Source of the DNA: Kiritimatiellia bacterium
GTDB taxonomy: Bacteria; Verrucomicrobiota; Kiritimatiellia; RFP12; JAAYLN01
Assembly (NCBI GenBank): GCA_017962605.1
Contig: JAGCUY010000070.1
Coordinates: 2,095 to 66,094, forward strand
Direction of reading: 5' to 3'
Length of the DNA stretch: 64,000 bases
Part shown: one piece after another, positions 11,559 through 34,122 of the stretch
Position numbering within the stretch: the stretch's first letter is position 1
Layout: each line of letters starts with the position of its first letter
The notes under the pieces: generated by a model
Told to the model about the DNA's origin: nothing
Databases searched by the model: none
Seen by the model: the letters and a program-made list of their open reading frames with translations, nothing else
Translations under genes and position numbers: made by a program

Positions 11559-11689
11559 TCTTTCGCCTAATCCGCTGGCCGTCTTGCTAGATGCCATCGG
11601 ATACATTCGCTTCCAAAAGCGAACCACCGGCGCACAGCCCAAAAGGTTGTGCGCCTTGATTATATCTGACGGAATAATAGACTCACCCG

Positions 11690-12340: not shown

Positions 12341-12446
12341 CACCATGCGAGCCTTCGCAGGGGGAGTTATGGCACGGGCAACGGCGAGAGCGAGGATTGG
12401 TTGTGGCGAGAGAAAGCTTTGGCGATGGCGGCGTTGTTTCGCGCAC

Positions 12447-15400
12447 TTATTCTACTGTTGCCATCTCGCCTTTGTTCTCGCGGAGAATGGATAGGTTGCG
12501 CTTCGCCATCGCATTTCCTTTTTCAGCAGAACGATTGAGCATTTCAAGCACTGTGGCCTCATGGTATTCCCCGGGATTTGCTATCTCCGCATAGAGAAGA
12601 ACCGCCAGGTTGTTGAGCGCTTCCGCATCGTCGGCCATCGCGTTCAAGACAGTGTTGCCAATCGCCCGTGACGGCAACTCGCTGAAGAAAAACATCTGCG
12701 CGATGCCATCGCTCCCAGCGGTTTTGCGCAAGAAGAAATACTTTCGCGGCCCGAAGTCGTCGCTATGCCGCGCCAGTATCACAAAGCGGATGTCCTGCGA
12801 AATCTGCCACATGGCGATTGCTCGCTCGACCCCTTCAGGCAAATCCCCATATTGGATGGGCTTATCTTCGGAAATAACAGTCTCGTCCCAGTAGTCATAT
12901 CCGAGAACGGGGGAAAGCAATTCTTTTATTTCCTTTTCCCCGCAGCGTTGATACGCCCCGTCGAGTTTGTCGTATGCGTATTCCTCAGCCAAACAGTTCT
13001 GCGTCCAGTATGTATCCCTGACGCAAATGTAGCACTCCTCCTTATCGCCGCCTTTGTCAGCGGGAATGTGAAGCCTATAGACGCCATCGGCCAGTTCCGC
13101 CAGCAAGGCGCCGCTTTCTGCCTCATAGTCATCCATGTCAAGTTCCCAAAGGTCATTCGCCGCCGGTTTCCATGGACAGAAAACCATCCGTTTCAGCGTC
13201 TCCGGAGGAACAAGCCCCTTTTGCCTCAAAGCCACATGGGAATCCTCACGAAGCAGTTCGTTGACGTATTTACGCCAGTCGAGTGTGTCGTGGCGATAAC
13301 CCACATGGCGGTAGTAGCCGAGCATCATCTGGTCAATGAGCGGCAGCGCAAACCCGCTTTCCATGGAGAAATCTGCTCTGAGACAGAGTTCCGGCCTGTA
13401 GCGGAAGGGACGTGGGGGCTTTATAGATGGCTCGCCAACGAGGTCTGCGTCGCTTTTGTATTCGTATTTCCATGCAAGCGTTGACCGAGAGGGGTCTTCC
13501 TCAGTGAGGTCATATTGATGGCCATAGTAGCCAATCTTGGCATTGGCGAGGCCGTTTGTCAGATCTTCAGCGTCTAGCTCTTGCGTCCAAAACGCCTCCA
13601 TGCTTTGGTGGCCCTCAAGAGGTCTTCCAAGCTCATCGCGCGAGTCAATGATGAACCCCTCTCGCGTGAACTCGTTGGTTGATGCGTTGCCGTTGGACGC
13701 AGGTGTCACGCGCGTCCAGCCGATAAGTTCGCCGTCGTTGCCGTAGTGGAACGAATCAATCCACGTTCCCTTGGCGCATCGCCAAGGGCAAAACCCGCCA
13801 ATCTGCCGCTTCGTAAAGTCGCTGACAGCAAGCCGCCCCTGGGCGTCATATTCGCGCGTCTCGTTCGGATTGAAATAAACGCTGGCAATCGCCGGGACCG
13901 AGGCGCGGCCATTGCAGACGAAGAAGCATCCGATATCGACGCGGGAAGACTTGATGGTCGCGCCGCCCGGAAGCGGCGCGTCGAAAGCCCCGTGCCAGTC
14001 TATTTCGATGCGGGCATGTGCGGAGTCTTCTCCCTGCGTTGTTATTCGCACCTTGTCTGCATCCCCTTGCAGCACTTTCCACACGAACTCGCCGCCCGTG
14101 TTGTTTTCATTGAACAGGCCGTCGGGTTCGGGCAGCCTTTGGGCCTCCACCTCCATTATGGCCGTTTTCGCCGCCCAGAAAGCCTGGATTGCGAAATGAT
14201 GGGCGGAACGTGCGACATATTTGCCGGAATCGTCGCCGAAGTCGATGTTCGCCGCAGGAGACGTGTCAAACGGAAGCGACACCTTGATGAACGGCATGTA
14301 GGGCGGTAGCGCGTTCGTCATCGCGCGGGCGTCCGCCAAGGCCCTCCCGACGTCGATGTCCGCGAAGGACAGGACAGGGCGCTGGGCGACCCCATCCATG
14401 AACGCCGCCTCGTTCGTGACGCACCGCTGGGCGTGGCGGATGATGTTCAGCGCGGCAAGCGATGCCCGGTTCGCGAAGTTCGTCGGGAGCGCCACTACGA
14501 TGTCCCTGAAAAGGCCGGCGAACTTCGACGCATCGTCTGCGCCGCTGCTGACGCCGACGCAGACTGGCAGGTTCGCCATGAAGCGGTCGATGCCGTCCGC
14601 GCCATAGTCCGAACCTGCGGCGTAGAATCCGAGCATGTTCCGAAGGCCGTGTCGCCACACCTCGCGGCATGCCCCGCCCCTGTCGAGGGCGATGATGGCC
14701 GCCGTGCCCATCGGCCTGTTCAGGCGGTTGTCTTCACCCGGGCAGTCGCCTGTCGCCACGGTCGGGATGTGCTCCTCCCTGCGTGTGTCCCTGAACCTGA
14801 ATATCGTCTTGCGCTTGTCGTGGCCAGCCTTGCGGAGCGAGTCGGAAAACGAGACGGCCGTCATTCCCAGAGGCGGCTGGACGCGACTTCCCCAGTCGTA
14901 GTTGAGAAGGAGGACGGGCCGCGCGTCTTCGTCGGTATCGACAGAAACAAGATACTCGCCGCCGATGGGGCTTGTAGCCTCGCCGAACTCGTAATACACG
15001 TTGTCGTCGTCAAGTGCAAGCACGCCATCGGCAATCCGGGCGTGCTTGCGCGGCTCGTCCCACTGCTCCTTGATTTCGCCGGCAATGCTGACGAGTCTGT
15101 CGAACCGCGCGTCGCCGCGAATCCCGGCGAGGTCTTCGTCCTCCATCATGTAGTCCGCCTCGTTGTACCCGGCGGCGATGGCCTGTTCCAGGGCTTCGAT
15201 GGCCTCGTCGGCCCGCCCCTGGCGGGCGAGGGCGCAGGCAAGGTTGTAGAACCAGCGCGGCGGGGCGATTCTGAGACGAATTCCCTCGCGGGCGACCCTC
15301 TCGAAAACCTCCGCCCGCCCTCCGATGTCCTCGGAACACCAGTCCTGCGCCCTTTCCAATTCAAAGAAGTCCTCCGCATAGTCGGGCATTTCCGACATCG

Positions 15401-16133
15401 GGACGCGGACGTCCGCGCCGCGCCACTTGCGGCGCAGCGCGGCAAGCGCCTCGGACGCATCTTCGATTGCGTAAACATCGACATTGGCGGCCTCGATGGC
15501 CTCTGCGAAAAGCGCGTCCACCGCGTCGAGGATTGACTTGAAGTCGGTTGGCGGCGCCTCGCAGGGAAGGACGTTGGCGCTCTCGGCAAGCCGGGAGTAG
15601 CGTATCTTCACGAAACGGCCGCGCCATGCGGTGATGAAGGTCAGGGACAAGCACTTCGCCGGGGCGTCGTTCGCGTCAAATGTGAGCGATGTCCAGAGGA
15701 AAGGGAGCTTCGACCTTTCAAGCACTCCCTCCTCGCTTCTGCCAAGCCATTTGAAATTGTGCCTTATTTGCTCGATTTCATGGCATGCCTTTGCAAGTTC
15801 GCGCCTGACCTCGCCCCCTACGCCATCAGGCAGGATTGGATCGTCGCGCATGAAGATAAAGAGGCTCAATAGACGCCCATTACCGCCCAGGGTCGGGTCT
15901 TCACCAGAACTGTAAACGAGTGCGTAGTCGTCATCGCCAGATTCGGTGAAAGTTCTTCTATCCAGCATCGTCAGGCCGTCTATTTTCTCCGGGAATTCGA
16001 CGCGGAGAACAGGCTCCACCCAGGTGCTGCATTGCTGGATTGAGTTCGCCTCGTATTTCTGGGCCGCGCAAGCGTCTGACATTGCCATGCTTGCCGCGCA
16101 AATCAATGCTGCCGCTATTGTTTTTGTGTTCAT
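12447..16133 (-). CDS. large secreted hypothetical protein (1228 aa) with C-terminal Sel1-like repeats
   Basis: N-terminal signal peptide (MNTKTIAAALICAASMAMSDACAAQ). C-terminal AEALNNLAVLLYAEIANPGEYHEATVLEMLNRSAEKGNAMAKRNL resembles Sel1/TPR repeats. Confidence 0.5.
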   Translation of the reverse strand: MNTKTIAAALICAASMAMSDACAAQKYEANSIQQCSTWVEPVLRVEFPEKIDGLTMLDRRTFTESGDDDYALVYSSGEDPTLGGNGRLLSLFIFMRDDPILPDGVGGEVRRELAKACHEIEQIRHNFKWLGRSEEGVLERSKLPFLWTSLTFDANDAPAKCLSLTFITAWRGRFVKIRYSRLAESANVLPCEAPPTDFKSILDAVDALFAEAIEAANVDVYAIEDASEALAALRRKWRGADVRVPMSEMPDYAEDFFELERAQDWCSEDIGGRAEVFERVAREGIRLRIAPPRWFYNLACALARQGRADEAIEALEQAIAAGYNEADYMMEDEDLAGIRGDARFDRLVSIAGEIKEQWDEPRKHARIADGVLALDDDNVYYEFGEATSPIGGEYLVSVDTDEDARPVLLLNYDWGSRVQPPLGMTAVSFSDSLRKAGHDKRKTIFRFRDTRREEHIPTVATGDCPGEDNRLNRPMGTAAIIALDRGGACREVWRHGLRNMLGFYAAGSDYGADGIDRFMANLPVCVGVSSGADDASKFAGLFRDIVVALPTNFANRASLAALNIIRHAQRCVTNEAAFMDGVAQRPVLSFADIDVGRALADARAMTNALPPYMPFIKVSLPFDTSPAANIDFGDDSGKYVARSAHHFAIQAFWAAKTAIMEVEAQRLPEPDGLFNENNTGGEFVWKVLQGDADKVRITTQGEDSAHARIEIDWHGAFDAPLPGGATIKSSRVDIGCFFVCNGRASVPAIASVYFNPNETREYDAQGRLAVSDFTKRQIGGFCPWRCAKGTWIDSFHYGNDGELIGWTRVTPASNGNASTNEFTREGFIIDSRDELGRPLEGHQSMEAFWTQELDAEDLTNGLANAKIGYYGHQYDLTEEDPSRSTLAWKYEYKSDADLVGEPSIKPPRPFRYRPELCLRADFSMESGFALPLIDQMMLGYYRHVGYRHDTLDWRKYVNELLREDSHVALRQKGLVPPETLKRMVFCPWKPAANDLWELDMDDYEAESGALLAELADGVYRLHIPADKGGDKEECYICVRDTYWTQNCLAEEYAYDKLDGAYQRCGEKEIKELLSPVLGYDYWDETVISEDKPIQYGDLPEGVERAIAMWQISQDIRFVILARHSDDFGPRKYFFLRKTAGSDGIAQMFFFSELPSRAIGNTVLNAMADDAEALNNLAVLLYAEIANPGEYHEATVLEMLNRSAEKGNAMAKRNLSILRENKGEMATVE

Positions 16134-16161
16134 GTTGCGTATCCTTTGAAAGTGTAGGCTA

Positions 16162-18228
16162 TCAAAGCAGAATACTCTGTTTTAAAGCATTCCAGTCCTT
16201 TTCGTTCAGCGTATTCACACCAGAATTTGTCACTCGGCCCTTTGCATCAAAGTATAGATCGAGTTCACCTCCTCCGATTGGTGACTGAAAACTCAACCTT
16301 ATATGGTAATCAGAGAATGCTTTTGCAGAAACGAGTTGGAGAGGCTTGCCCTTCAGAGATTGCAAGATGCGAGCGACTATTGTTTCGTGTTGCGGACGGA
16401 CACTAATTTCTGGCTCGGCAACATCTGATTGTTCGGCTTCCTCCCCAAAGACTTCTCCTGTCTTTTTACCAACCAAAGAAGACAAGCGCCTTCGTGCTGC
16501 ATCATCAAGGCCATCGACATGGTTTTCAATGTGGGTAATCATGGCATTCTTGCGGTATATGACATCAACATATCCCGTTTTGTCTTTGCCTTGAACATGT
16601 ATCCGATACCGAGAGGAAAGCTCTTCGATTTGTCCCAATGTCAATCCAATAGATCGAATAACTTCATCGATTGCCGATGACGTCCTTTGAACACAAGTAT
16701 CCACTTCTACAGCCTTATCATAAGACTTATTAGACGCGAAAACATTAGACAAAGCGTCAATATGCGGAGAATTGGCAACGAATAAGTGTTCCTTGGCGCG
16801 TGTTGTAACAGTGTATGCCCAGCGGAAGAAATAACTACTCATGAGATTTAATCCACAATTGTAGTCCGCCCATACATAATTCCATTCACCACCCTGTGAC
16901 TTGTGGCCTGTAACGGCATAGCCGAATTTTACAATTGGTGCGCGAAGCCAAGGCAACTCTGCCATTTTTTCTTTAACCAATTTGTCCCAAAACAGCTTTT
17001 TGCTTCGGTCTTTTCGGAAATCGGGATATTTCTTTCGCAAAATTTCTTCTGCAAAATGTTTTACCCCATTGTAGAGTCCCATTTGGGCAAAACAATCATG
17101 TTCATCCCATTCGGAAAGAATTATGGGTGTAACATTTATCCAGATGTTATCGACCTGACCACGTTCGGGTTCATAAGTCCAACGCAGAGACATCCTCTTA
17201 AACGTGTATGTGAAGGTGAAAGTCTTTTCACTTTCTTTTGGGCGATAATACCCTTGCAAAGAAAAAGTTTCCCCGAAAGTGTTCACAACAGTGAGAAAGT
17301 CGCCATTGAAGAACTGCACCTTCTCTCCAGATGGAAGAAGAATGCGTGTGTTTCTGATGGATAGAAGCCTTTCTCCGTATTCCGGCAATTTGCCAAAATG
17401 CCCCAAAAAACCTCGAATTACAGCATTGTATTCTTGTACTTTGGCATTAGTATGGGCAATGGCAATCTTTTCGTCTATTGAATCCTTCCAATCGGGAACG
17501 ACAGACAATGTCTCTTCAGAGACCATTGAGACATCCTCGTGCGAGGTAAATGAGAAACGATTGAAGTCTTTTGCTTCAAGCGCTGAGCGCAACCTTGTCG
17601 CCTCAGCAAGGATGCCACTCCCTTTGCTTTGACGGAATACCTCGGTAAGTTCTATTACAGTCGGTTTAAATGAGGTTAATTCCTCTATCTTTTCCGCATC
17701 CAGGGCAGGAGGAGTCTCGCATTGCTCCATGACAGGAGGAAGCTGGAAAGAGTCTCCGACGAAAAAAAGAATGTTTGACGTATTTTGAGTCTTAATTCCA
17801 GAATACTGAATCAAATCCCCCAAAAGAGAACCACTGCCGAATTGAAACAACTCACGATCATTATCATGCTTGGAAAGACCGACCATCGAGGCTTCGTCTA
17901 TGATAAAAGCCGTGTTTTCAACATCCTTGTCATCCTTTAGTGGGAAAATCCATTTCAGCGCATCGTCTTGCTCGTCCCGGATTGGTTCATTCACAATGTT
18001 GAAGATTCCTGAATGGATAGTTGAAGTATCAAATCCTGTTCTCTTGTGTAGAACCATCGCAGCCCGACCCGTAGGAGCCATCAGCATCGGGAAGAGTCCG
18101 CGTTCTTGAAGAACTGGCACAAGCGAACGGATAAGGGTTGTTTTACCAGTACCAGCGGCACCCCGGATGATGAAACAGCGGGTACCAGCATCAAGCGCAT
18201 GCAAAATAGTGTCAAGAGGATTTCTCAT
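16162..18228 (-). CDS. SF1B RecD/Pif1-like DNA helicase (AAA_30 + UvrD_C_2-type) with about 200-aa C-terminal extension
   Basis: Motifs I GAAGTGKTT, Ia MAPTGRAA, II IIDEASMV, III VGDSFQLPPV, IV VFRQS, V YAVTGHKSQGGEWNYVW, VI YTVTTRAKEHL. Start codon lies 2 nt after the RT stop. Low-GC gene. Confidence 0.75.
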   Translation of the reverse strand: MRNPLDTILHALDAGTRCFIIRGAAGTGKTTLIRSLVPVLQERGLFPMLMAPTGRAAMVLHKRTGFDTSTIHSGIFNIVNEPIRDEQDDALKWIFPLKDDKDVENTAFIIDEASMVGLSKHDNDRELFQFGSGSLLGDLIQYSGIKTQNTSNILFFVGDSFQLPPVMEQCETPPALDAEKIEELTSFKPTVIELTEVFRQSKGSGILAEATRLRSALEAKDFNRFSFTSHEDVSMVSEETLSVVPDWKDSIDEKIAIAHTNAKVQEYNAVIRGFLGHFGKLPEYGERLLSIRNTRILLPSGEKVQFFNGDFLTVVNTFGETFSLQGYYRPKESEKTFTFTYTFKRMSLRWTYEPERGQVDNIWINVTPIILSEWDEHDCFAQMGLYNGVKHFAEEILRKKYPDFRKDRSKKLFWDKLVKEKMAELPWLRAPIVKFGYAVTGHKSQGGEWNYVWADYNCGLNLMSSYFFRWAYTVTTRAKEHLFVANSPHIDALSNVFASNKSYDKAVEVDTCVQRTSSAIDEVIRSIGLTLGQIEELSSRYRIHVQGKDKTGYVDVIYRKNAMITHIENHVDGLDDAARRRLSSLVGKKTGEVFGEEAEQSDVAEPEISVRPQHETIVARILQSLKGKPLQLVSAKAFSDYHIRLSFQSPIGGGELDLYFDAKGRVTNSGVNTLNEKDWNALKQSILL

Positions 18229-18230
18229 GG

Positions 18231-20069
18231 CTATAGGTCTCCATAAATGCCGAAATTGCTACCAGATTTTTCTTTGCAATAGTAGTCTTGAATCTCTACC
18301 CTTGTTAATCCCTTGAAAGAGCCATAGTAGCTAAATGGCGCTCCATAGTACCCTCGTTTAATTGTCAAGGTCGTGCTGTCGTTTACGGAAAGGTCTTTGT
18401 TGCCATTATCGCAGTCTATCGCCGGAGTTGCGGGATGCTGTTTCCGCCACTCTCTCTTCATGGCCTTTTTCGCCAGTTTCAGAACAGAGTTGCGTGTTCT
18501 ATCGAGGTTTTTAAGTTGAGACACTACTGAAGGACAAGACGAAATGTGGGGCAGAAATACCGCCAGCCAACTTCTGGCAAATCTTGCATTAGCCGGACGA
18601 TCAATCCTTCCCACGCCAATGGCTGTTAGACGCAATTGGAAAACCTTGAAGAGGTCATACCAGGTAAATCCATTCCTAAACTGGGATTGCGCGTCTTTGA
18701 GCATACGAGTAAGTCGCGTCTTTTCCATGTACATTTTATCCTGATGCTTTTTTATAGTTTCCTTTTTTATGCGGACTGCTCCATCATATCGTATCTGATG
18801 GCCCAGAAAACTAATCCATGGCGTACCAGGGCGTCCTAATCCAGTCTCCTTCCAGGCAATGGGGCCTTTTGATTTTTCGGTGAAGTACGCCGATGAATAC
18901 CTCGCACTTTTAGCTATGGGGTGTGTCGGTAGTTTTAATCGTTTCACAGCATCCAAATACCTGTCAAGAGCCTCCTTGCACTTCTTTTTTTCGGGATGTA
19001 CGATAATTATGTCATCGCAAAATCTTGCATAAAACAAGTTCTCATCTGCATCAGCCATAACAGCGCGGTCGGCTTCATCCATGACGATGTTAGCCAAAAG
19101 TGGTGAAAGCGCACCGCCTTGCGGAATCCCTATTTCATGTGGATTCACATCTTCGTCCCCATAAACTGATTGCAGGACACTAATCGGCACACGATCTACA
19201 CACTCGCGCTTAGCAATGATTTCCGGGTCTTCGTATTCGTCAAGATTGCGTGGAAATGCGTAAACATTCAAATATGCTTCAAGCACTTTCCGAGCGCGGT
19301 TGTCAACACCTTGCGGGGCACGGGCGGAAAAAATGTCGAAAGCTCGCCTAATTATATCGTGGTTGATTACGTCAAAGAACTTTTGAATATCGCAATCTGC
19401 CACATAGAGAGTTTGGTTCGTAAAGCGTTTTCTATATTCGATAAGATTGTTTATGGCCGTATGGATGGAATACTTTTTCCCGTTGCGGCGAAAAGCATAG
19501 CAACAGTTCAGCAAATGTGAATCAAAAACATTCCGAAGATATGCGGCAGTTTTTGAAAGAATTACCCGATCTTTTGAATCGGTAAAACACGACAGGCATC
19601 GGTATGAAGATTTCTTGTTCTCTTCGTCCATCGTTTTTACACGTCCTGTATTCTTCCGAATCAACATCAACTCAGGCCTTCTAAATGCGAATTCGCCGAT
19701 GGTTATAGTTTTTTGTATGTCCATGGCAAATGCAACCAGATTTCTGCCCCATTGGGAGTCTTTGAGCTTTCCGGCTTTCAGCATTCCAGAAATAACGCGA
19801 ATGATTGACAATGTGGCAACATCATTTTGCGATAAACCTTTTCGGGCTTCTTTGCCGCCCCGTCGCCACAGACGGCGCGGCGGAAGCATCTTAGTAATGG
19901 ATTCTTCACTTATCTTACTCTTGGGTTCAAGTTCCTTTCCGGCGTCATCGTGCAAAACCAGCCGGTCCCAATACATATGGTATCTATGGCGTGAAGAGGC
20001 AATACGAGTCCGCAAGGCGCACAGCACCTTTACGATGTCATCAAAACTGAAATACTGCTCAAAATCCAT
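18231..20069 (-). CDS. reverse transcriptase (612 aa) with long N- and C-terminal extensions; not intron/retron/DGR-like in context
   Basis: RT motifs 1-2 (CCYAFRRNGKK ... YVADCDIQKFFDVINHD), 4 (IGIPQGGALSPLLANIVMDEAD), 5 (YARFCDDIIIV = YxDD box), 7 (ISFLGHQIRYDG). About 190 aa precede motif 1 and about 200 aa follow the thumb. Low-GC. Confidence 0.8.
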   Translation of the reverse strand: MDFEQYFSFDDIVKVLCALRTRIASSRHRYHMYWDRLVLHDDAGKELEPKSKISEESITKMLPPRRLWRRGGKEARKGLSQNDVATLSIIRVISGMLKAGKLKDSQWGRNLVAFAMDIQKTITIGEFAFRRPELMLIRKNTGRVKTMDEENKKSSYRCLSCFTDSKDRVILSKTAAYLRNVFDSHLLNCCYAFRRNGKKYSIHTAINNLIEYRKRFTNQTLYVADCDIQKFFDVINHDIIRRAFDIFSARAPQGVDNRARKVLEAYLNVYAFPRNLDEYEDPEIIAKRECVDRVPISVLQSVYGDEDVNPHEIGIPQGGALSPLLANIVMDEADRAVMADADENLFYARFCDDIIIVHPEKKKCKEALDRYLDAVKRLKLPTHPIAKSARYSSAYFTEKSKGPIAWKETGLGRPGTPWISFLGHQIRYDGAVRIKKETIKKHQDKMYMEKTRLTRMLKDAQSQFRNGFTWYDLFKVFQLRLTAIGVGRIDRPANARFARSWLAVFLPHISSCPSVVSQLKNLDRTRNSVLKLAKKAMKREWRKQHPATPAIDCDNGNKDLSVNDSTTLTIKRGYYGAPFSYYGSFKGLTRVEIQDYYCKEKSGSNFGIYGDL

Positions 20070-20222
20070 AGGAGAAAAAAAGGAGGCGGCGTCGCGGAAT
20101 TCTACCTAGTTGGCCGCTTTGCGCCCTTTAGGGCGCAGGAATTTGACGCGGGGAACCAATTGGCCTGCAAGCCCCGCCAGAATCACGGTCGTTAGCCGTG
20201 CGCGACGCGCGCCTCCATAAAA
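20070..20222 (-). ncRNA. candidate structured non-coding RNA / regulatory leader immediately upstream of the RT gene
   Basis: 153-nt spacer that is GC-rich inside an AT-rich island. Contains a perfect hairpin TGCGCCC-TTTA-GGGCGCA (about 20119-20136) and further GC palindromes (GCGCGACGCGCGC). No ORF. Confidence 0.25.
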
Positions 20223-22925
20223 TCATTTCACAACCTCCAATGTGACAGCCTTCCACCCAACGCGATCCTTGAGCTTGTCGTAGGATTTCACCGCTACGCC
20301 TCCGATTTCCGTGCCATTTGTTAAGTCCTGAATAAGGCTTTGTGGCACGAAAATATCTTTTGAGTCGCCTGTTCTGTTGCGAACGAAACCATAGTTACGG
20401 CCTTCGGGCCTGTTGAATGTCCCGGAATAAAACATGCCGAAAGAAGGGAACCCTTCGTACTTGACATTTATTATTTCAAGAATATATGATTTGCCGCTTT
20501 TTGCGCTTCTTTCAAGAGCCAATTCGCATACCGTTCCGCTAGGCATGTTAGCCAGACATGGAAGCTTTGCCCAGTCACCTGTGCATGTTTCGCCATTGTT
20601 GCCGATTGTAAACTCTGAACGCCCACGACGTTTGTCTTGATAAGATAGAATGGCAATCTGCTTGGGGTAAATGTCCCATGGGACTCCCTCCTCTCTTTTC
20701 TCAACCTTGAGGACTCGTAGCCGTTCGCCAACCACTTCCGTCCAGATTTTCACGGGCATTCCTGGCGTAGCCATGCCAAGTACGGGAAATCGTCTTGTTT
20801 CAACGCGAACTTCGGTTGAATTTCCAAAATCTGCAAAAATCTTGGCAATTTTCTCATTGCGTTCCTTGTCAACATAGCATGTCATGAGAACGGCATTAAT
20901 GAAAGGCTGGCCGGCAAACGCGATTTCATCTGCCTTGGCCGCAAACTCATGGTACACGTCTTCATTACTATTTGTTGGAGTTGGATCGGTGGTAAACCGC
21001 ATCTTCTCGCCATCTGGAATTGCCTTTATTGTAACCAACTGTTTTTTTAGCAATTCGTCTTTTTTTTGCCGGAGTTGGTAGAGACTCCATTTTTTTGCGG
21101 TTCGGATCTCTTTTACAATCCTCAATTCACATAGAGCCTCAGGTATTTTTCCCATTTCAATGAAGGCGTCAGCAAGCATTTCATGGACGCCTACAAGATA
21201 CGAACTGTCTTTTGCCGGACAAAGCGCTGCGCGGCAAAGGCAGGCAAAGAATTTCTCCCTGTCATCGTGAAATGTTTCGGCAAGAAGTTGCCAAGTCCAA
21301 AACTGAGCCGATTTTTTGCGAGTTATTTTCGCTATATACTCTCTGGCCTTGACGGATTCGCCGCTTTCAACAAGCAGTTTTCCATAATAGAATGGAAACC
21401 ATTCCTGCGAAGGGTATCTTTCCATGGCCATCCTGATGAAATCCAATATCCATTTGTGGCCTACCACGAACGCAAGGTTTTCACTACGGCCTTTTTGTTT
21501 TGCACACTTATAAAGCAATCCTACTACAGTTTCAACAAGAGAAGGAAATGATTTGTTCGGATTGTCTTTCGGGATGAACGGCGCGTAATCTTCTTCGGCG
21601 AAATTGGAGACATCCCAATTTTTGACAAAATGGAGGAATTGAATGGCCAATTGTTCTTGGATATTCTCACCCGCAGCCTTTACTATCTTTGCATAGATTC
21701 GCAGATATTGCGAATAGGCAACCGAAGGCTTCGGAACGGCCGAGCAGCAATTCACCAAATTGAAACCTTCGACGACGCAATTTGTGACGGCATCTTCCTG
21801 CCCGTTCTTTTCTCGTCCCTCTGGGAAAACGTCATTGAGAATTTTCTTCAATGACGCAGGAGTCAAATCTGCCGCATTTGGATTCCAGCCTTTCTTCAAG
21901 GCTTCGTCTATTGTTCGATAAAGCGCCCAGATTGCACTGGTCTGGGCTTTCTCGCTTTCTGGGTTTAGCGGAATGGCGGCACAGTATTCCCTGAAGGCAC
22001 GGGGATAATCACCAAGCTTGTCACAGACAGAAGCCAATGCCATGTGTGCAAGGAAACTTGTTGGCTGTTCACTAATAAGCGATTCTGCCTTTGACAATGC
22101 TTCTGCCAGCGACTCCGGGTTTGCTGCCAATGCTTTTATTTCACCAGTCCCACTCAAAAACTGGTCAGCTTTTTTTAAGTCTATTGGTCTTGTCGCTTTG
22201 ACTTTGCTTTCTCCTGCGGCTTCCTCATTAAGAGAGAGGTTACGCATTTCGTTGGCAAAGAACTCGACTAGCTTTCGATTCTTAAGGTTTTCCATCGATT
22301 GTTTTAGGCAATCATGGAGCGTCCAAAACATATCTAGTTGGCATGAGGTATCATCACATTTATCAAGCAGTTTTGCCCTGCATTCCTCGAATTGTGCCGA
22401 AAGGTGTTCCTCGCTTGAAAGAGCCTCTGAGGCATAATGTTGAATCAGCTTTTTCAAAATCATGTCATATTCACTATCTCCAAGAGAAAGCCCTTGAAGG
22501 ATAGAGACGAATCTTTCTCGCGTTTTCTGAAGAGTTTCTTTTTGTGTTTTTCCAAGAACATGTAGAGACTTAAGGGCGGCGATTGCGTTGCATCCAGCCC
22601 AGCCAACTGCGCTCGCATTTTTAGCGGTGTCGAGATTGTAGAGGTCGCAGGCCATCAGGAACGCTATAATGCGACATGATTGCAATTCAATATTGTCAGA
22701 GCCACAAGTAGTAATTGCAGCTTTTGCCTCCCGTCTTATGGCCGTGCAAACCTTGAATGCATCCTGACGGTTCGCTGCTGCATATGTTATCCATGACTTT
22801 TGCACTTCATCAGCATAGATCCCATTCAAGGCTGCAATGACATCTACGTCTTTGCGCGTCGCAAGGCCGGAAGCTAGCAACTGCTGCAAATCATCTAGTT
22901 TCCATGTTGTCGTGAAGGTTGCCAT
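20223..22925 (-). CDS. 900-aa alpha-helical (TPR-like) protein with C-terminal cold-shock-domain-like OB fold
   Basis: Mostly helical, repeat-like N-terminal 650 aa. C-terminus NYGFVRNRTGDSKDIFVPQSLIQDLTNGTEIGGVAVKSYDKLKDRVGWKAV parallels the CspA RNP1/RNP2 motifs (KGFGFI ... DVFVHFSAI). No nucleotide-binding motifs. Low-GC. Confidence 0.45.
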   Translation of the reverse strand: MATFTTTWKLDDLQQLLASGLATRKDVDVIAALNGIYADEVQKSWITYAAANRQDAFKVCTAIRREAKAAITTCGSDNIELQSCRIIAFLMACDLYNLDTAKNASAVGWAGCNAIAALKSLHVLGKTQKETLQKTRERFVSILQGLSLGDSEYDMILKKLIQHYASEALSSEEHLSAQFEECRAKLLDKCDDTSCQLDMFWTLHDCLKQSMENLKNRKLVEFFANEMRNLSLNEEAAGESKVKATRPIDLKKADQFLSGTGEIKALAANPESLAEALSKAESLISEQPTSFLAHMALASVCDKLGDYPRAFREYCAAIPLNPESEKAQTSAIWALYRTIDEALKKGWNPNAADLTPASLKKILNDVFPEGREKNGQEDAVTNCVVEGFNLVNCCSAVPKPSVAYSQYLRIYAKIVKAAGENIQEQLAIQFLHFVKNWDVSNFAEEDYAPFIPKDNPNKSFPSLVETVVGLLYKCAKQKGRSENLAFVVGHKWILDFIRMAMERYPSQEWFPFYYGKLLVESGESVKAREYIAKITRKKSAQFWTWQLLAETFHDDREKFFACLCRAALCPAKDSSYLVGVHEMLADAFIEMGKIPEALCELRIVKEIRTAKKWSLYQLRQKKDELLKKQLVTIKAIPDGEKMRFTTDPTPTNSNEDVYHEFAAKADEIAFAGQPFINAVLMTCYVDKERNEKIAKIFADFGNSTEVRVETRRFPVLGMATPGMPVKIWTEVVGERLRVLKVEKREEGVPWDIYPKQIAILSYQDKRRGRSEFTIGNNGETCTGDWAKLPCLANMPSGTVCELALERSAKSGKSYILEIINVKYEGFPSFGMFYSGTFNRPEGRNYGFVRNRTGDSKDIFVPQSLIQDLTNGTEIGGVAVKSYDKLKDRVGWKAVTLEVVK

Positions 22926-22961
22926 GTCAATCTCCGGTTATTGTCATTCAATTTGCAATTG

Positions 22962-24170
22962 CTAACCCTCAAAAACTAATCGTATCTTCGGACTTGGGCG
23001 TATACATTTTTCATACGGACGTGGGATGTCAATATCGCTCCCCTCAAAAAAACGTTTCACGTGGTCAACTATCTGACAACGTCTAAACTTCGCATCATCT
23101 CGTTCCAATGAACCATCACCTATGTCCCCGCTATAAGGGTGAAAGGTATTTAAATGGCCATTTTCATCACAGATATCAAGGCCTTCGGGAATCCTCATTG
23201 AGTAAATGCCGCCAACAATTGCACGGTTGTGAAACGTATGCGTCCTCCTAGAGTTATAATCCTTTTTGAGTAGCAAAACACGTATCAACAAACCCATTGC
23301 ATTGTTGTGCCTTATTTTATTGGTTCTTCCCATTTCTTCAATCAGATTAATCACTTCTAAGGCTGAAAACTTTTCATATTCCACAGGGTATTTCGAGATT
23401 ATCGTCAGTTCCGTAATATCAGAATTTGACATAAATGGTTGCAACAACGCTTTTGAGGAATGCTTCCATCGGTTTTGATTGTCAATGTGTTCGGAAGTAT
23501 TATCATCATTAGGTTTCGCAATTGCGCTCCAGTACCGGTCGGCAAGCACTACTTGTCCTTCTGCTGCGGCACAAAAAGCATTCATATAGTCATAAAAAGA
23601 GTTTTTGGAACTATCATCATATGTTTGTTCTCCTATCCATTTTTTACGCAATATTTCTGTATCACTTTCTTCATAGTTATCTATTGATTCACAGACGAAA
23701 GATTGTCGTAAGTTGTTTATTGATAACCCTTCACTAAACTTGTCGGTTATTATAACGAAGCCCTTGATTTCTCGTGGGGTGGCAATACGCCGAGTATGTT
23801 TGGTCCATGCTTGGATACATTCTTTCAAATAGTCATTATCATCGCCCGTGGACTCGTTAATCGCTACTATATGTTTTCGATCTTCATAAAGGCTATCATA
23901 ATTTTTGAGAACGTTGCAAAGATTGCCAAAAAAGCCGCCTTCTTCTAGTTCGGCATATTCCTCCGCATATTGTTCTGCAATGGTCGTAATTAAAGCAAGA
24001 GGTTTGCGCGCTTTACTAAACTCGTCAAGAATGAGAATACCATTGGCTTCAATAGCATTGCGAAGATTGACAAGTCTGCTTTGAAGTTGTACGGCATACA
24101 CTATGTTATTCGCCGCCTTATCGATGCAACGGCGAATATGCATCCAATCTATGAGATACTGAACAATCAC
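22962..24170 (-). CDS. hypothetical 402-aa protein, partner of the adjacent ABC-type ATPase
   Basis: GTGA start/stop overlap with the upstream ATPase gene. Very AT-rich. No confident domain. C-terminal C-x-x-N-G-H...H...C...D-H region is a possible but unconvincing nuclease-like motif. Confidence 0.4.
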   Translation of the reverse strand: MIVQYLIDWMHIRRCIDKAANNIVYAVQLQSRLVNLRNAIEANGILILDEFSKARKPLALITTIAEQYAEEYAELEEGGFFGNLCNVLKNYDSLYEDRKHIVAINESTGDDNDYLKECIQAWTKHTRRIATPREIKGFVIITDKFSEGLSINNLRQSFVCESIDNYEESDTEILRKKWIGEQTYDDSSKNSFYDYMNAFCAAAEGQVVLADRYWSAIAKPNDDNTSEHIDNQNRWKHSSKALLQPFMSNSDITELTIISKYPVEYEKFSALEVINLIEEMGRTNKIRHNNAMGLLIRVLLLKKDYNSRRTHTFHNRAIVGGIYSMRIPEGLDICDENGHLNTFHPYSGDIGDGSLERDDAKFRRCQIVDHVKRFFEGSDIDIPRPYEKCIRPSPKIRLVFEG

Positions 24171-25228
24171 CTCACGCCCTCAATTCCGAAGAATTCATCG
24201 ACAACTCTTGTTCGAGCAGTAAAGAATCCACCCGGCCATCTCGTTCGATAGTTTCCATAGGAGTCGGTCTTTATCTCATCCACTATACTACCCTCTTCGG
24301 TTTTTGTAACATATAGCACGGAAAGGTCATCTGGCGTAATCGTTCCCATCCTAAGGAAGTTTTTTAGTTTCAAAGCCATTAGTTCGCTATGGCTCTCAAC
24401 AATAAGCTGTCTGTCTCGATTCTCATTAGCGGTCTTGAAAATGAAATTCATGAGACTGGATATTTGCCGCTCGTTGACATGGGATTCCGGCTCTTCAAGT
24501 GCAAAAAGATGTTTTTGCCCCGCCCTCCATTTGCAAAGGCTCAGTCCTGTCTCATACAATCCGTCTATCCCTGCTCCTGTATTGTCTCGCACGACAGTTA
24601 TACCAAAAGTTTTGTCTTTAAGTCTGCTAAAGTCAAGGGCCTCATAAGGGACATTTAGTTCCGAAAAAAACTCATTAACAAATTTGATTGCATCCGTCCC
24701 AAGAAGGAGTGCTTCGTCCAGACTCGTTTTTTTCGTTTCGTCGATTCTGGTCCGAATTGGACGAGCGGCTTCTTGGTGAATCATTTCTGGAACGCCATTG
24801 ACATACGGATCTTTCAAACTCTGATGAATACGTTTCCTCTCTTCAACATCGGTCGGCCTTTCATAAAAGCTATGGACAGCCCCTGAATATGGAGTTTCAT
24901 AGCCGATGTACTTTAGAGAATGTCCGTTTTCACTTTCTCGCCCTTCTTGCCTTGCAGAATACTCATATTTTGGGGAGTGTCCCAAAGAATCTGCGGATGT
25001 TGTTATCCTCAATTTGATTTCCAGATTTGTGTCGCCTGAAAAAACATACTCTTTAAAATTAGCACGAATGGCGGCTACTTCGTCGTTGCATATCATGCGC
25101 AACAATTGAAGGAAAGTGCTTTTCCCGGCGCTATTGTCACCAAAGATAAAGTTGATTCGCCGCAGAGAAAAATCTACTCCTGGGTCACCATAGCACTTGA
25201 AGTTTTTCAGTTGAATTCGCCTAATCAT
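24167..25228 (-). CDS. ABC-type (AAA_15/AAA_21, SMC-head-like) ATPase, defence-associated type
   Basis: MIRRIQLKNFKCYG N-terminus typical of the family. Walker A GDNSAGKST. Walker B/D-loop LFALEEPESHV ... LIVESHS. Likely start at 25228 (MIRR) rather than the track start at 25318. Confidence 0.65.
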   Translation of the reverse strand: MIRRIQLKNFKCYGDPGVDFSLRRINFIFGDNSAGKSTFLQLLRMICNDEVAAIRANFKEYVFSGDTNLEIKLRITTSADSLGHSPKYEYSARQEGRESENGHSLKYIGYETPYSGAVHSFYERPTDVEERKRIHQSLKDPYVNGVPEMIHQEAARPIRTRIDETKKTSLDEALLLGTDAIKFVNEFFSELNVPYEALDFSRLKDKTFGITVVRDNTGAGIDGLYETGLSLCKWRAGQKHLFALEEPESHVNERQISSLMNFIFKTANENRDRQLIVESHSELMALKLKNFLRMGTITPDDLSVLYVTKTEEGSIVDEIKTDSYGNYRTRWPGGFFTARTRVVDEFFGIEGVR

Positions 25229-25262
25229 GAGCAAACCTCTCCTCCAAAAACAAACGATAAGA

Positions 25263-26417
25263 TTATACCAAAAAATGGCTTTCTTTGATAAGGTCTGGAC
25301 ATCCGCAGACATCCGCAACTATTTCCCTGTTCCTCCACTTGATTCGTTGCAGGGGGAATGTGACAGGGGCGTTGCGCTTGGGGACAAGTGTTTCCACGGC
25401 TGTGAAGCCGGCGGCGGCAAGGCTTTTGCGGAGGTTCGACATGGTCTTGGTCAGGTCTTCCGCGAACTTCTCGTTGGAGAAGAGCGAACCCTCCTGGAAA
25501 GTGGCTATCCAGTCGCATTTGCCGGATGCATGGTTTTCCGTGCCATGCAGGGCGAGTAGTCGCCTATGGAGGTCACGGATAGGGCACCCGCCAGCAATCA
25601 AAAGGAGCGTCGCAAAGCATGGGCGGCTCATGGGGACTGTCGCCCCGTCGAGTGTCACCCAGCCATTCCATGCGTCGATTTCAATCTCAGGATAAACAAC
25701 GGCTGGCGGTGCGACTTCCTGAACCCGCGAAACAAGTGTTCCGTAATTTGGCGGCAGCGACTTGAACTTCTCCTGATACCACCCACGCATGCGCACATAC
25801 GGCACCTCGAACAGCTCGCTTTTCAGCGAAGCACCCGCATGACTCTTTCCCGTAAGCAGGGACTTGTAGCGCGTTCCCTTTTTGGGGAAGAAGAAGGGCG
25901 GCTCACTTCCACCCTCCAATGCTGGCGGCAGCAACACATGGTAAACCTTGTCGCAATCGCGGCCGAGAAGCGTCATGCAGGAAAACATGAGGGCGCTCAT
26001 TGTCTTTCGTCCGCCTGCAATCGATACGTGGAGTTCCGTCCCGCAATCCTCTGTGAATTGGCGTAGTTGCGAGAGCATGAAGTTTGCTGCGCGGAGATTG
26101 TCGTCGCCCGTCCTGAGATCGTCGATTTCGTTGCCATGCGCATCAGGGATGGCGCGAATGGATGCGCTCCCGAAAACGAGACGCCCTTCGACATCAAGCC
26201 CGCTCCGCTTCATGCAAGCCAACATGTCGTTCCAAACGCCCCCTTCGAGAAGCGCTTCGCAAAGACATCTCTTCCCGCTCTTCGTCGTGATGGCGACGAC
26301 CTCGTCAGGCACAACCGGAACATCACAATGGGCCAGCGCCCATGCGGTCTCCGTGAGAATCGACGGCGTCGTGCCAACAACGGCCACCAAAACTGCCTTC
26401 TTGTCCTTTTCCATCAC
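25263..26417 (-). CDS. CARF-domain protein (CRISPR-associated NE0113-like Rossmann sensor) with uncharacterised C-terminal domain
   Basis: Strand-1 motif VLVAVVGTTPSILTETAWAL and strand-4 motif LHVSIAGGRKTMSA match the two CARF signatures. 384 aa. GC-rich, host-like composition. Directly upstream of the AT-rich island on the same strand. Confidence 0.45.
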   Translation of the reverse strand: MMEKDKKAVLVAVVGTTPSILTETAWALAHCDVPVVPDEVVAITTKSGKRCLCEALLEGGVWNDMLACMKRSGLDVEGRLVFGSASIRAIPDAHGNEIDDLRTGDDNLRAANFMLSQLRQFTEDCGTELHVSIAGGRKTMSALMFSCMTLLGRDCDKVYHVLLPPALEGGSEPPFFFPKKGTRYKSLLTGKSHAGASLKSELFEVPYVRMRGWYQEKFKSLPPNYGTLVSRVQEVAPPAVVYPEIEIDAWNGWVTLDGATVPMSRPCFATLLLIAGGCPIRDLHRRLLALHGTENHASGKCDWIATFQEGSLFSNEKFAEDLTKTMSNLRKSLAAAGFTAVETLVPKRNAPVTFPLQRIKWRNREIVADVCGCPDLIKESHFLV

Positions 26418-27676
26418 TATTCCCCCTCTAGCAGAAAGTCGTAGGCGTTGACTTGGTGGACGCCATTGTTCGAGGCTGGCAGATCCATGTCGAGCGTAAT
26501 CAGCGTCTTGGGGTAGTGGTCGCGTATCGCCAAAAGAGGCGCGTATTCGCGCATCCGCGTCGTTTCGTCCCGCACTGTCTCCGCAACCTGGTAATAGCGG
26601 ATGTCGTCGCCATCCCGCGTGACAAAATCGACTTCTCGGCCGTCATGTTGCCCAACCATGACATTTCCCGAACGGCGCAGCAACTCAAGATAGACGATAT
26701 TCTCCAGCATGCGCCCCGAATCGCCGGAACGGTTGCCCAGAAGACGGTAACGCAATCCCATGTCAACGGCATAGTATTTGCACCCGCTTGTGAGTACATC
26801 CCGTCCGCGAATGTCATAGCGCGGGGCCTTTAGGAAAAGGAAGGCGTCGCACAAGGCATCAACATAGCCCTCGACCGTGTTGCCGTTCGTCCTGGCACCG
26901 GCGGAGGAAAGCGAGGTGGCGATGTTCCTGAGGCTCGTCAGATTGCCGATATTGTCCAAGAGGAAACGAGCTATGCGGTCGACCAGCCCCGCGTCCGTCA
27001 TCTTCCGCCGTCGCAGAACATCCTTCACCAGAACGGTATTGTAGATGCCGTCAAGATACTCGCCTACAAGCCTCGCATCGCCCCGCAGTGACGGAACATA
27101 CGGAAAAGAACCGAAGCGAAGGTAATCTAGGTAATGACGGGTGTAGTCCCCTGTCGCGCCGATGGCGTTGCAGTATTCGCGGAATGACAGCGGCTGCATC
27201 TTGATTTCAACATAGCGGCCGGAGAGAAATGTCGCGAGGTCGCCTGAAAGCATGTTGGCGTTCGAACCCGTGACATAGACGTCGATGTTCTTGCGCGAAT
27301 GGAGTCCGTCAACCAGCTTCTCGAACTCCGGCAAACGCTGAACCTCGTCAAGGAAGACATATGTCTTTCCATGAGTGGCAATCTGCTGCTTGATGAGATT
27401 CCAAGCATCGCGCCATGACGAAAACTCCGGCGTATCGGGATCCTCGAAGTTGAGGGCGACAATCCGGCTGTCAGGTACGCCGGCGCGCTTCAAACTGTCA
27501 CGAAAGATTTCAAGGATCGTGGACTTTCCGCAACGGCGGACGCCTGTCACGACTTTGACAAGATCATGGTCTCGCCAATGTTCCAACTGGCGCACGTAAT
27601 ACGGCCTGCCGAAGATAGTCTTTTCGCTGTTGTCCATAAGCAACTTCCCGATATAAAAACACTTCAATTGAATCAC
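26417..27676 (-). CDS. AAA+ ATPase, AAA_14 + DUF4143 family
   Basis: Walker A GVRRCGKST, Walker B VFLDEVQ, and a C-terminal region typical of DUF4143 ATP-binding proteins. 1-nt overlap with the CARF gene. Confidence 0.65.
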   Translation of the reverse strand: MIQLKCFYIGKLLMDNSEKTIFGRPYYVRQLEHWRDHDLVKVVTGVRRCGKSTILEIFRDSLKRAGVPDSRIVALNFEDPDTPEFSSWRDAWNLIKQQIATHGKTYVFLDEVQRLPEFEKLVDGLHSRKNIDVYVTGSNANMLSGDLATFLSGRYVEIKMQPLSFREYCNAIGATGDYTRHYLDYLRFGSFPYVPSLRGDARLVGEYLDGIYNTVLVKDVLRRRKMTDAGLVDRIARFLLDNIGNLTSLRNIATSLSSAGARTNGNTVEGYVDALCDAFLFLKAPRYDIRGRDVLTSGCKYYAVDMGLRYRLLGNRSGDSGRMLENIVYLELLRRSGNVMVGQHDGREVDFVTRDGDDIRYYQVAETVRDETTRMREYAPLLAIRDHYPKTLITLDMDLPASNNGVHQVNAYDFLLEGE

Positions 27677-27734
27677 ATTTCATCGAGAAAGTCAAGAACT
27701 GCTAAAATATTTGAGCATTTTTAAATAAAACATG

Positions 27735-27762
27735 GGAAATGCTAATCTCGATTAGCATTTCA
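27735..27762 (-). terminator. perfect 11-bp inverted repeat (AAATGCTAATC-N3-GATTAGCATTT) followed by a T-rich tract on the minus strand
   Basis: Read directly. Sits at the 3' end of the ferredoxin-like gene and upstream of the DUF4143 ATPase gene. Could be a terminator or an operator. Confidence 0.3.
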
Positions 27763-28404
27763 CAGGCCATCCTCCATCGTAAGCGTGTGGCGGGGGCAGC
27801 GGTCTATGCAGCGGCGGCACTGGATGCAATCGGGGTTGCGGAAGAGTCCGTCCTGCGTGTCCTTGGGTGGGGTGAATCCGAAGGGGCAGACCCTTGAGCA
27901 GAGCCCGCATTTGACGCAGGTGTCCGCGACGCGGATGGCGGTGCGCTCGGGACGGATCGTCTTGTAGATTTTCCCCATCGGGCAGACGGAACACCAGAAC
28001 CAGCGGTTGAAGACAAGCCACCCGACAAGGCCTACCGTCGTAGTGATGGCGATCATGGCATAGAAGAGGAACCCCCAGCCGCGCACCGTTGATGGCCGCA
28101 TCCAGAGGTAAAGCCCCGCCACCATCGCCACCATGACGAAGAGCGATGTTTTCCGCGAAAGGAGTTTCGTCGGAACCTTGCGCCCGGTGTCGGGCAGCAG
28201 CGAATAGAACGCGCCCCGTGGGCAGAAGTTCCCGCACCCGTGCCGTCCGCCGTGCCGGAGCGCCCCGACAAGCCCCACCGCCACATTCACGAAAAGGCAG
28301 TAGGCGAGATACGGGTATTTCCATCCAAGCGCCAGGACGATTACAAACACCAGCGCCTTGATTCTGTCTTTGGTCTTCCTAGTCATGGTGGTTCTCGGCT
28401 TCAT
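27760..28404 (-). CDS. membrane-bound 4Fe-4S ferredoxin-type protein (NapH/MauN-like)
   Basis: Several TM helices plus two C-x2-C-x2-C-x3-CP clusters (CVKCGLCSRVCP, CIQCRRCIDRCP). Confidence 0.55.
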   Translation of the reverse strand: MKPRTTMTRKTKDRIKALVFVIVLALGWKYPYLAYCLFVNVAVGLVGALRHGGRHGCGNFCPRGAFYSLLPDTGRKVPTKLLSRKTSLFVMVAMVAGLYLWMRPSTVRGWGFLFYAMIAITTTVGLVGWLVFNRWFWCSVCPMGKIYKTIRPERTAIRVADTCVKCGLCSRVCPFGFTPPKDTQDGLFRNPDCIQCRRCIDRCPRHTLTMEDGL

Positions 28405-28559
28405 GAGGCGTTACGACTTCCCAATGACCGCCCTTGTCCGGACCGACGCGGCGGATAACGCCCGGTTGCTTCGCTGACCCGCGCCAATAGCGGGGGAGAA
28501 GTGAATTTGCCTCTCCAAATTCATGCCCGCGAAACGCATTTATTCTAGCACAATGCGCA

Positions 28560-28720
28560 TTAGGAAGCAAATGGAAGTTCTTGAAGTTGAAAAGTTGAGA
28601 GGTTGAAAGGTTGAAAAGTTGAAAAGTTAGGCGCTGACGCACGACAAATAATCTCACACAGAGGCACAAAGACACAGAGGAGAAGTTGAGAGGTTGAGAG
28701 GTGGGGCGAAAGGGCCATGC
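28560..28720. repeat. tandem octamer repeats (GTTGARAR)n with an embedded REP-like fragment (AGGCGCTGACGCACG)
   Basis: gaagttgaaaagttgagaggttgaaaggttgaaaagttgaaaagttaggcgctgacgc...gagaagttgagaggttgagaggtgggg. Confidence 0.75.
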
Positions 28721-28723
28721 CAC

Positions 28724-31519: not shown

Positions 31520-31520
31520 T

Positions 31521-33972: not shown

Positions 33973-33985
33973 GGGATGGTGAGGG

Positions 33986-34120: not shown

Positions 34121-34122
34121 GG

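Follow-up and report, generated by a model that had tools for sequence, protein, structure and literature searches.

The subject of this study is a low-GC island at positions 16134-25262 of a 64-kb window (the whole stretch of DNA that was analysed) from contig JAGCUY010000070.1 of a Kiritimatiellia bacterium. The island holds five open reading frames (ORFs), all on the minus strand and tightly packed, which encode in order of reading an ABC ATPase, a partner protein, a protein with TPR and cold-shock domains (TPR-CSD), a reverse transcriptase (RT) and an SF1B helicase, and it carries a structured RNA element just ahead of the RT gene. The five co-directional genes are those listed by an initial annotation, made from the DNA letters, which had taken the island for a candidate undescribed RT-based defence system.

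The island and its five genes

The GC content is 0.443 in the island, against 0.611 in the left flank and 0.622 in the right flank, and GC at third codon positions (GC3) is 0.37-0.455 in the five island genes versus 0.655-0.83 in neighbour genes. The sharp borders of the island are gene borders: the helicase stop lies at 16162 and the neighbouring gene starts at 16133, while on the other side the stop of the upstream CARF gene, at 25263, is the island edge. The low-GC island with sharp edges that the initial annotation described is therefore real; its "about 40%" GC was slightly low overall, although the two 60-bp examples it cited do have 37%. Milder dips in GC lie outside the island, at about 11500-13500 (0.49-0.55) and at 27250-27750 (0.48). 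No tRNA genes or integrase were found at the island, and a search for direct or inverted repeats flanking it gave short chance matches only. Related cassettes from the loci described below (L numbers) are also poorer in GC than their flanks (0.51 versus 0.63-0.66 in L002, 0.47 versus 0.63 in L004), and this GC deficit, shared by the window and other hosts, indicates horizontal spread; the island is accordingly read as a horizontally acquired cassette in a Kiritimatiellae genome.

The ABC ATPase gene (24167-25228, 353 aa counted from the ATG) likely starts with the ATG at 25228, with GGAGGAGAGG before it; the mechanical ORF begins with a TTG at 25318. Upstream of this gene lies a single promoter-like site (25262-25291, minus strand, a consensus pattern match), composed of TTATCA, an 18-nt spacer and a TG-extended TATAAT, and overlapping the CARF stop codon. 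It shows 10 of 12 consensus matches plus the extended -10, this being a match of pattern only, to rules which may not be those of Kiritimatiellae. The ATPase and partner genes overlap by GTGA, the partner and TPR-CSD genes are 36 nt apart (37 bp in the initial annotation, whose other junctions were exact), the RT and helicase genes are 2 nt apart, and the TPR-CSD and RT genes are separated by a GC-rich spacer of 153 bp.

The RT (18231-20069, 612 aa) matches the PADLOC profile RT_UG39 (3.2e-131, 437 bits; residues 3-585 aligned to positions 2-537 of the 541 in the profile) better than every other UG, DRT, Abi, retron and Cas RT profile, the runners-up being a generic RT (1e-26), Drt2 (1e-25) and Drt9 (5.2e-22); RT_UG17 gives 2e-21. 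RVT_1, with the catalytic motif FCDD (F350-C-D352-D353), is its sole Pfam domain and no known domain is fused to it, as in Class 2. In the AlphaFold2 model (pLDDT 87.8) the C-terminal tail is flexible or disordered, and the best PDB matches of the model are DRT9 RT chains (9vma, 9nlv and 9ioa, E 2e-15 to 2e-13; for 9vma_A, E 2e-15 and a target-length normalised TM-score of 0.63), with group II intron RTs and DRT2 ranking next. Among 28 homologues, G576-P578-S580-Y581 of the tail are invariant and Y609 is near-invariant. Judged by profile match and predicted structure, the enzyme is classed here as a UG39-like Class 2 UG/Abi RT, DRT9-like in structure. UG39 is the Class 2 UG/Abi group which Mestre et al. 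2022 split from UG28 (=DRT9) as 'UG28b' and linked to a VirE+PriCT-2 protein, cluster 64 (PMC9226505); Pfam found no BT4734-like_N/VirE protein in the island.

Several other identities of the RT were considered and rejected. For a group II intron, the NCBIfam score is 100 bits against a cut-off of 300, and no intron Rfam match appeared at E <= 1 in 11000-30000; for a retron, the RT models reach at most 42 bits where the cut-offs are at least 235, and the Rfam scan of the same interval gave no retron RNA. For a diversity-generating retroelement (DGR), there are no long near-identical direct repeats in 15500-26000 and no Avd-like gene among the five ORFs, and DRT2 and DRT3a fall far under their NCBIfam cut-offs (86 of 390 and 60 of 200 bits, respectively). 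The initial annotation was correct in setting the RT apart from group II introns, retrons and DGRs, but it overstated its case in knowing of no described family for this combination of parts; the RT, for one, has a full-length RT_UG39 match (3e-131).

The helical 900-aa TPR-CSD protein (20223-22925), in which TPR matches are weak, contains DUF7017 (3.5e-27, 95.5 bits, residues 508-616) and S1CSD-TOTE-2 (5e-13, 49-51 bits versus a cut-off of 27, residues 833-895), and it matches PADLOC PDC-M16B (4.6e-65). The helicase (16162-18228, 688 aa) has the Pfam domains AAA_30 (6e-19), AAA_19, PIF1 and UvrD_C_2, with intact motifs (Walker A GAAGTGKT with K29, and DEAS), and matches PADLOC PDC-M16A (9.2e-116, residues 5-669); TBP-TOTE is on record in the homologous helicase of L165 and weakly in those of L166/L167. 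By these profile matches, the TPR-DUF7017-S1/CSD protein is predicted to be the 'TPR-OB' component of TOTE, PDC-M16B-like, and the SF1B (RecD/Pif1-like) helicase with TBP-like C-terminal repeats the 'TBP-effector' component, PDC-M16A-like. TOTE stands for TPR, OB, TBP and Effector, and the systems, as Aravind, Iyer & Burroughs 2022 are cited in 10.1101/2025.09.15.676423, are computationally defined conflict systems.

In the ABC ATPase, Pfam recognizes AAA_15 (1e-16), AAA_21 and a C-terminal DUF3696 (23.6 bits, cut-off 22), the Walker A lysine being K36. The protein matches PADLOC NsnB (2.3e-26, profile positions 1-341 of 345), with AriA behind it (1e-18), and is on these matches assigned as NsnB-like, i.e., of the Menshen type. 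The domain calls of the initial annotation were all borne out, by RVT_1 with FCDD in the RT, AAA_30/PIF1/UvrD_C_2 in the helicase, the S1CSD-TOTE-2 end of the TPR-CSD protein and AAA_15/AAA_21/DUF3696 in the ATPase. The partner (22962-24170, 402 aa; model pLDDT 90.4) is a two-domain alpha/beta protein with a probably PIN-like N-terminal domain and a C-terminal domain of the phospholipase D (PLD) superfamily (MIT_C/NucT-like), whose nearest folds are the MITD1 PLD-like domain (2YMB), NucT, Nuc and Tdp1, and its family has an invariant D...HxR. The PADLOC NsnC profiles gave no partner match at E <= 0.01; the PB-PLD1 effector NsnC has the same structural neighbours as the partner (PMC12065111). 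On its modelled fold, the partner is probably an NsnC-like predicted PLD-type nuclease whose domains are laid out like those of the effector in Menshen. The NsnA sensor (ParB-DUF262 + ParBDB) was found neither in the island nor in the related cassettes examined. The partner family is rare, with 44 representatives in an exhaustive profile search, where a word-index search found 2 homologues.

A structured RNA ahead of the reverse transcriptase

The 153-bp spacer, which the initial annotation rightly called GC-rich while overlooking its content, is a conserved structured RNA. The element (20074-20216, minus strand) is a candidate template non-coding RNA (ncRNA) made of a closing stem P1, hairpins P2-P4 and a single-stranded stretch of ~25 nt, followed by a U-run which stops 4 nt short of the RT ATG; its minimum free energy is -69.4 kcal/mol (z = -3.9). 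Related RT genes are preceded by the same RNA architecture with differing sequence, and RNAalifold on 10 copies gives 35 pairs with compensatory changes in 18. The covariance models R1 and R2, grown by iteration from a seed of 10 sequences (MAFFT of 18 hand-trimmed ncRNAs being poor for divergent members), returned 24 and then 34 matches in related loci totalling ~1.3 Mb; each match shares the strand of an RT gene and lies immediately 5' of it. For the RNA of the window the scores are 138.5 bits with R1 and 121.8 bits with R2, and it is the sole match in the 64-kb window.

In the alignment of 24 sequences, 95.7% of cells are paired, versus 37-49% with slid partners, both sides change in 29 of the 35 pairs, and 0 of 500 shuffles reach the observed values. 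This alignment was fitted to the covariance model, which favours pairing, but the compensatory counts (166 cells, versus at most 26 in slid controls) far exceed that bias. P1 and the P2-P4 hairpins are each kept by compensatory changes (helices 4-7), and unpaired positions are conserved too, e.g., CC just ahead of the P1 3' strand. The Rfam scan of 11000-30000 gave no relevant family at the element, only one weak chance match on the opposite strand.

The element is also present at RTs without a TPR-CSD neighbour (L006, L008, L010-L013, L091-L096 and L104), and therefore it belongs to the RT; the RNA model gave no match upstream of VirE-linked RTs. It is already known that in DRT2, DRT9 and DRT10, which are Class 2 UG RTs, the template is an ncRNA encoded immediately upstream, and that DRT9 primes from C-terminal tyrosines (PMC12483538, PMC12632851), while ncRNA templates are predicted for other Class 2 UG systems (PMC12632851). 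By analogy, the structured RNA of the island is probably the template of its RT.

Gene linkage in related loci and surroundings of the island

We collected 160 loci with RT relatives, whose genes were labelled by iterated profiles made from the window proteins, the neighbour counts covering 113 loci with upstream context. In 19 of the 113, the gene immediately ahead of the RT encodes TPR-CSD; RT identity in these loci goes down to ~30%, and they come from Kiritimatiellia, Lentisphaerae, Verrucomicrobiota and Chromatiales. These 19 loci contain the ABC gene in 13 cases, the partner in 13 and the helicase in 10. The VirE-like (BT4734-like_N) neighbour of canonical UG39 was found in 47 of the 113 loci but in 0 of the 19; an OLD-type ATPase-TOPRIM was found in 6, and 40 had a different neighbour or none that could be recognised. 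The order ABC, partner, TPR-CSD, ncRNA, RT is maintained from 80% to ~30% RT identity, and this five-part order occurs across Kiritimatiellia, Lentisphaerae and Verrucomicrobiota; in a gammaproteobacterial locus the order is helicase, TPR-CSD, RT. The initial annotation, which read the genes as a defence-type module, is supported in this respect, as linkage of RT, TPR-CSD, ABC, partner and helicase recurs in other genomes.

An independent start from four distant partner homologues (~20% identity) led to eight contigs (L161-L168), and the partner follows directly after the ABC gene in all eight. A ~790-aa protein comes next in L162/L163, both of which cut this third gene, and in L165-L168, and after it the contigs L165-L168 reach an RT and a DUF7017 protein, L165-L167 additionally carrying a TBP-TOTE helicase; the three shortest partner contigs do not extend far enough to show an RT. 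It seems, then, that the partner protein is confined to this cassette, which argues for one system. Many related cassettes have a second, shorter DUF7017/TPR-CSD paralogue (630-726 aa) right after the RT (L005 11695-13587, L009 11689-13608, L086, L088 and L165-L168), and a divergent LysR-family gene stands upstream of the ABC gene in many related cassettes and in most partner contigs.

RT relatives were also found paired with DUF1848 (L007, L011, L089), with a DprA-like DNA_processg_A protein (L013, L005, L040) and with a microbial PARG-like neighbour (L065), and L007 has two tandem RT copies. In L019, L020, L029, L039 and L109, the OLD ATPase-TOPRIM lies between hsdS and hsdR in type I restriction-modification (R-M) operons. 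The ncRNA is present in L007, L011, L013, L065 and L089, and the OLD-linked loci gave no match to the ncRNA model.

Directly upstream of the island, on the minus strand at 25263-27676 (GC 0.55-0.565), are the CARF gene and an ATPase gene. The CARF protein has Cas_NE0113, matches PADLOC CARF5 (8e-56) and carries the NCBIfam family name 'ring nuclease Csm6' (Csx1/Csm6-like); the AAA_14/DUF4143 ATPase matches PADLOC PDC-S01 (4e-145). Homologues of the CARF protein (window 25263-26417) occur a few kb upstream of related RT cassettes in L005, L007, L013, L071, L083, L084, L086 and L091, other contigs of Kiritimatiellia/Verrucomicrobia, and their conservation exceeds that of the RT (e.g., 7e-150 in L007); at the L071 site only a 58-aa remnant of the RT is present. 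Instead of being part of the system, the CARF gene may flag a conserved hotspot of integration. On the other side, a gene for a 1228-aa protein (12447-16133, minus strand) with host-like GC starts 28 nt past the helicase; its product is TPR/ABhydrolase-like_N with a signal-peptide-like N-terminus, and similar proteins lie downstream of related RTs in L065 (4585-6336) and L089 (6745-8367), for which either synteny at a hotspot or a link in function may be the reason. A few kb upstream of the island, the minus-strand region 28724-36780 encodes an SNF2 helicase with DUF3670 (PADLOC ZorD/DpdE-like, 4e-113) and an 885-aa protein matching SspH/mad8 profiles, a sign that the region devoted to defence may be larger. 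Related cassettes are adjoined by type I R-M and DruA genes.

One composite system or separate neighbours

Taken together, we favour, with reasonable though far from full confidence, the reading that three recognisable modules of the island make up a single RT-based candidate system against phage, composite in nature and horizontally mobile. The first module is the UG39-like RT with its own upstream ncRNA, the second is the TOTE/PDC-M16 pair of TPR-CSD protein and helicase, and the third, as identified from profiles and models, is a predicted Menshen-type transducer/effector pair without NsnA.

The identities of the parts, the conserved RNA fold and the conserved gene linkage are observations; how such a system could act is hypothesis, and we infer that cDNA is made, what product results, that a protein serves as primer, which component senses what and that the nuclease is active. 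After binding the upstream ncRNA, the RT would use a portion of it as template for single-stranded cDNA, like the RTs of DRT2, DRT9 and DRT10, and the primer would probably be a tyrosine of its disordered tail. This cDNA or RNA-DNA hybrid would be bound or processed by the OB-fold/TPR protein and the 5'-3' helicase, which would report its state during infection. In this way the two proteins would stand in for the absent NsnA and license the pair of ABC ATPase and PLD nuclease, and this pair would then degrade nucleic acid and stop the phage or the cell. That all this amounts to a single undescribed immune type, in which a Class 2 UG RT with a new template-ncRNA family makes cDNA that is read by TOTE and controls a Menshen-type effector, is a bolder claim which we put forward tentatively, as somewhat short of an even chance.

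Several observations weigh against the composite system. Its anti-phage role is a prediction, and the defence association of UG39 was rated 'inconclusive' by Mestre et al. (PMC9226505). The partner has HxR and not the classical HxK, so that it is only a putative enzyme, and TBP-TOTE in the window helicase reaches 16-20 bits, under the Pfam cut-off of 27. A conserved internal poly-U tract of the DRT9 type was not found in the ncRNA consensus, where the conserved U-run is the 3'-terminal one only, and when the P1-enclosed loop of 34 ncRNAs was circularised, no stop-free frame of the DRT2 type was consistently open (the window loop has stops in all six frames), this test being weak since the template borders are not defined; the cDNA product is therefore not predictable. 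The window has neither the LysR gene nor the second DUF7017 paralogue, and may therefore be a reduced form. The RT and ncRNA also occur without the other genes (e.g., L006-L013), PDC-M16 is known as a candidate of two genes, neither of them an RT, and the position of the helicase varies: it stands after the RT in the window and L082, while in L083/L084 it is upstream and divergent, in L009/L086 likewise upstream but co-directional, and in L005 it comes behind a second DUF7017 paralogue; within 10 kb in L002 it is absent. Finally, window and L082 are 80% identical in RT and TPR-CSD, 74% in ABC, 51% in helicase and 37% in partner; such uneven identities imply module exchange, and therefore separable modules, and the mosaic fits the effector shuffling described for Menshen (PMC12065111). 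The comparison suggests that effector-type genes were recently replaced between the window and L082.

The last of these points also favour the best-surviving alternative, i.e., that a Menshen-, PARIS- or Septu-like ABC/nuclease pair, the TOTE/PDC-M16 pair and a stand-alone, DRT9-like RT with its ncRNA are independent neighbours in a defence hotspot, which we consider unlikely, although it deserves serious attention. It would account for the catalogued two-gene PDC-M16, for the variable helicase and for the uneven window/L082 divergence as module exchange, as well as for an RT family that is otherwise met with VirE-like (47 loci), OLD (6), DUF1848, DprA-like or PARG-like neighbours or alone with the ncRNA, and the interval between the CARF gene and the TPR gene resembles an integration hotspot. 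However, independent systems do not readily explain why so rare a partner (44 representatives) stands behind the ABC gene in every sampled context, followed by a ~790-900-aa TPR-type protein and an RT wherever the contig is long enough, nor why the order from ABC to RT is kept to ~30% RT identity and across phyla, with the window genes on one strand and overlapping or 2-36 nt apart. In addition, the NsnB/NsnC-like pair comes without NsnA, and since this usual sensor is missing, the pair needs other input.

A second alternative takes the 153-bp spacer for a mere terminator or attenuator of transcription that separates the TPR-CSD gene from the RT gene, and for no functional partner RNA of the RT. 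It is suggested by the GC-rich closing stem of the spacer with a U-run directly after it and just before the RT ATG, and DRT9 ncRNAs also have a 3' U-rich stretch, which is dispensable (PMC12483538). We regard it as very improbable, since three internal hairpins needless for a terminator are kept by compensatory changes, unpaired positions such as the CC before the P1 3' strand are conserved, the element stays with the RT where the TPR-CSD gene is missing, and its placement upstream of the RT mirrors the ncRNAs of DRT2, DRT9 and DRT10. Least credible of all is that the cassette is a retroelement which is selfish or serves no defence, such as the remnant of a group II intron, retron or DGR, or else an RT system for DNA repair or other housekeeping. 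For this speak the NCBI name of an identical protein ('group II intron reverse transcriptase domain-containing protein') and the top NCBIfam match (group_II_RT_mat, 100 bits), but this match is far under its 300-bit cut-off and covers palm and fingers only, retron RT models are far below theirs, no group II intron RNA or other relevant Rfam family was found in 11000-30000 and no TR/VR-like repeat in 15500-26000, the best profile (UG39) and the best structure (DRT9) are those of defence-type RTs, and the neighbours are defence-type genes.

The composite system can be compared with known ones part by part. The window RT matches the UG39 profile over its full length without an extra domain, like Class 2, but it is only ~28-32% identical to VirE-linked members, has no VirE/PriCT-2 and sits behind TPR-CSD, ABC and partner genes instead. 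With DRT9 it shares the closest solved structure, an upstream structured ncRNA with a 3' U-run and conserved tail tyrosines, whereas the Drt9 profile match is only 5e-22, a conserved internal poly-U template loop was not found here, and four linked proteins are added. DRT9 is a UG28 RT with its ncRNA alone, sometimes with SLATT, and its internal poly-U template is universally conserved (PMC12483538, PMC12489045). DRT10, composed of a UG17 RT, an ncRNA and SLATT (PMC12632851), resembles the island in having a Class 2 UG RT, an upstream ncRNA and a separately encoded effector, but differs in the RT group (UG17 profile 2e-21) and in its effector, a membrane SLATT and not an ATPase/nuclease pair with a helicase. 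As in TOTE/PDC-M16, the TPR-CSD protein and the helicase match M16B/M16A and carry TOTE-named Pfam domains, but here the TPR-CSD gene lies between the Menshen-like pair and the ncRNA-RT, and many relatives have two TPR-CSD paralogues. The likeness to Menshen (PMC12065111) consists of a DUF3696 ABC ATPase followed by an overlapping gene with probable PIN-like and PLD-type domains, whose acidic residue and H-x-R site match the NsnC PB-PLD1 class. NsnA is missing from the window, and RT, ncRNA, TPR-CSD protein and helicase are foreign to Menshen. In retron-Septu, a retron RT and its msDNA guard the PtuA ABC ATPase/PtuB nuclease pair. The proposed system would follow the same logic, in which a nucleic acid made by the RT is linked to an ABC ATPase and a nuclease as effectors; the window RT, however, is not a retron RT, the RNA architecture differs, the predicted nuclease is PLD-type and not HNH, and the TPR-CSD protein and helicase are extra.

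A search of the literature, to which the TOTE review of Aravind et al. 2022 was external, found neither the gene combination nor the ncRNA described. The statement of the initial annotation that no described family matches is only partly right: within that search it holds for the composite, but every protein fits a catalogued family, and therefore the cassette is not categorically new, its pieces being already known.

If the bolder claim of a single undescribed immune type is true, DRT-type cDNA synthesis would for the first time be tied to an ABC-ATPase nuclease in a system other than a retron, and TOTE proteins would receive their first assigned role. The products of Class 2 defence RTs differ, being a new gene in DRT2, poly-dA in DRT9 and telomere-like repeats in DRT10. 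For UG39, the locus provides a covariation-backed ncRNA, from which RNA immunoprecipitation sequencing (RIP-seq) and cDNA immunoprecipitation can be designed directly, and the linked proteins suggest how a nuclease effector might be connected with what the RT makes. The purely computational TOTE/PDC-M16 family and the sensor-less NsnB/NsnC-like pair also gain a role that can be tested. The core of RT and ncRNA appears portable, with VirE-like, OLD, DUF1848, DprA-like or TOTE/Menshen-like partners, and this variety of partners helps to sort the sensing part from the killing part.

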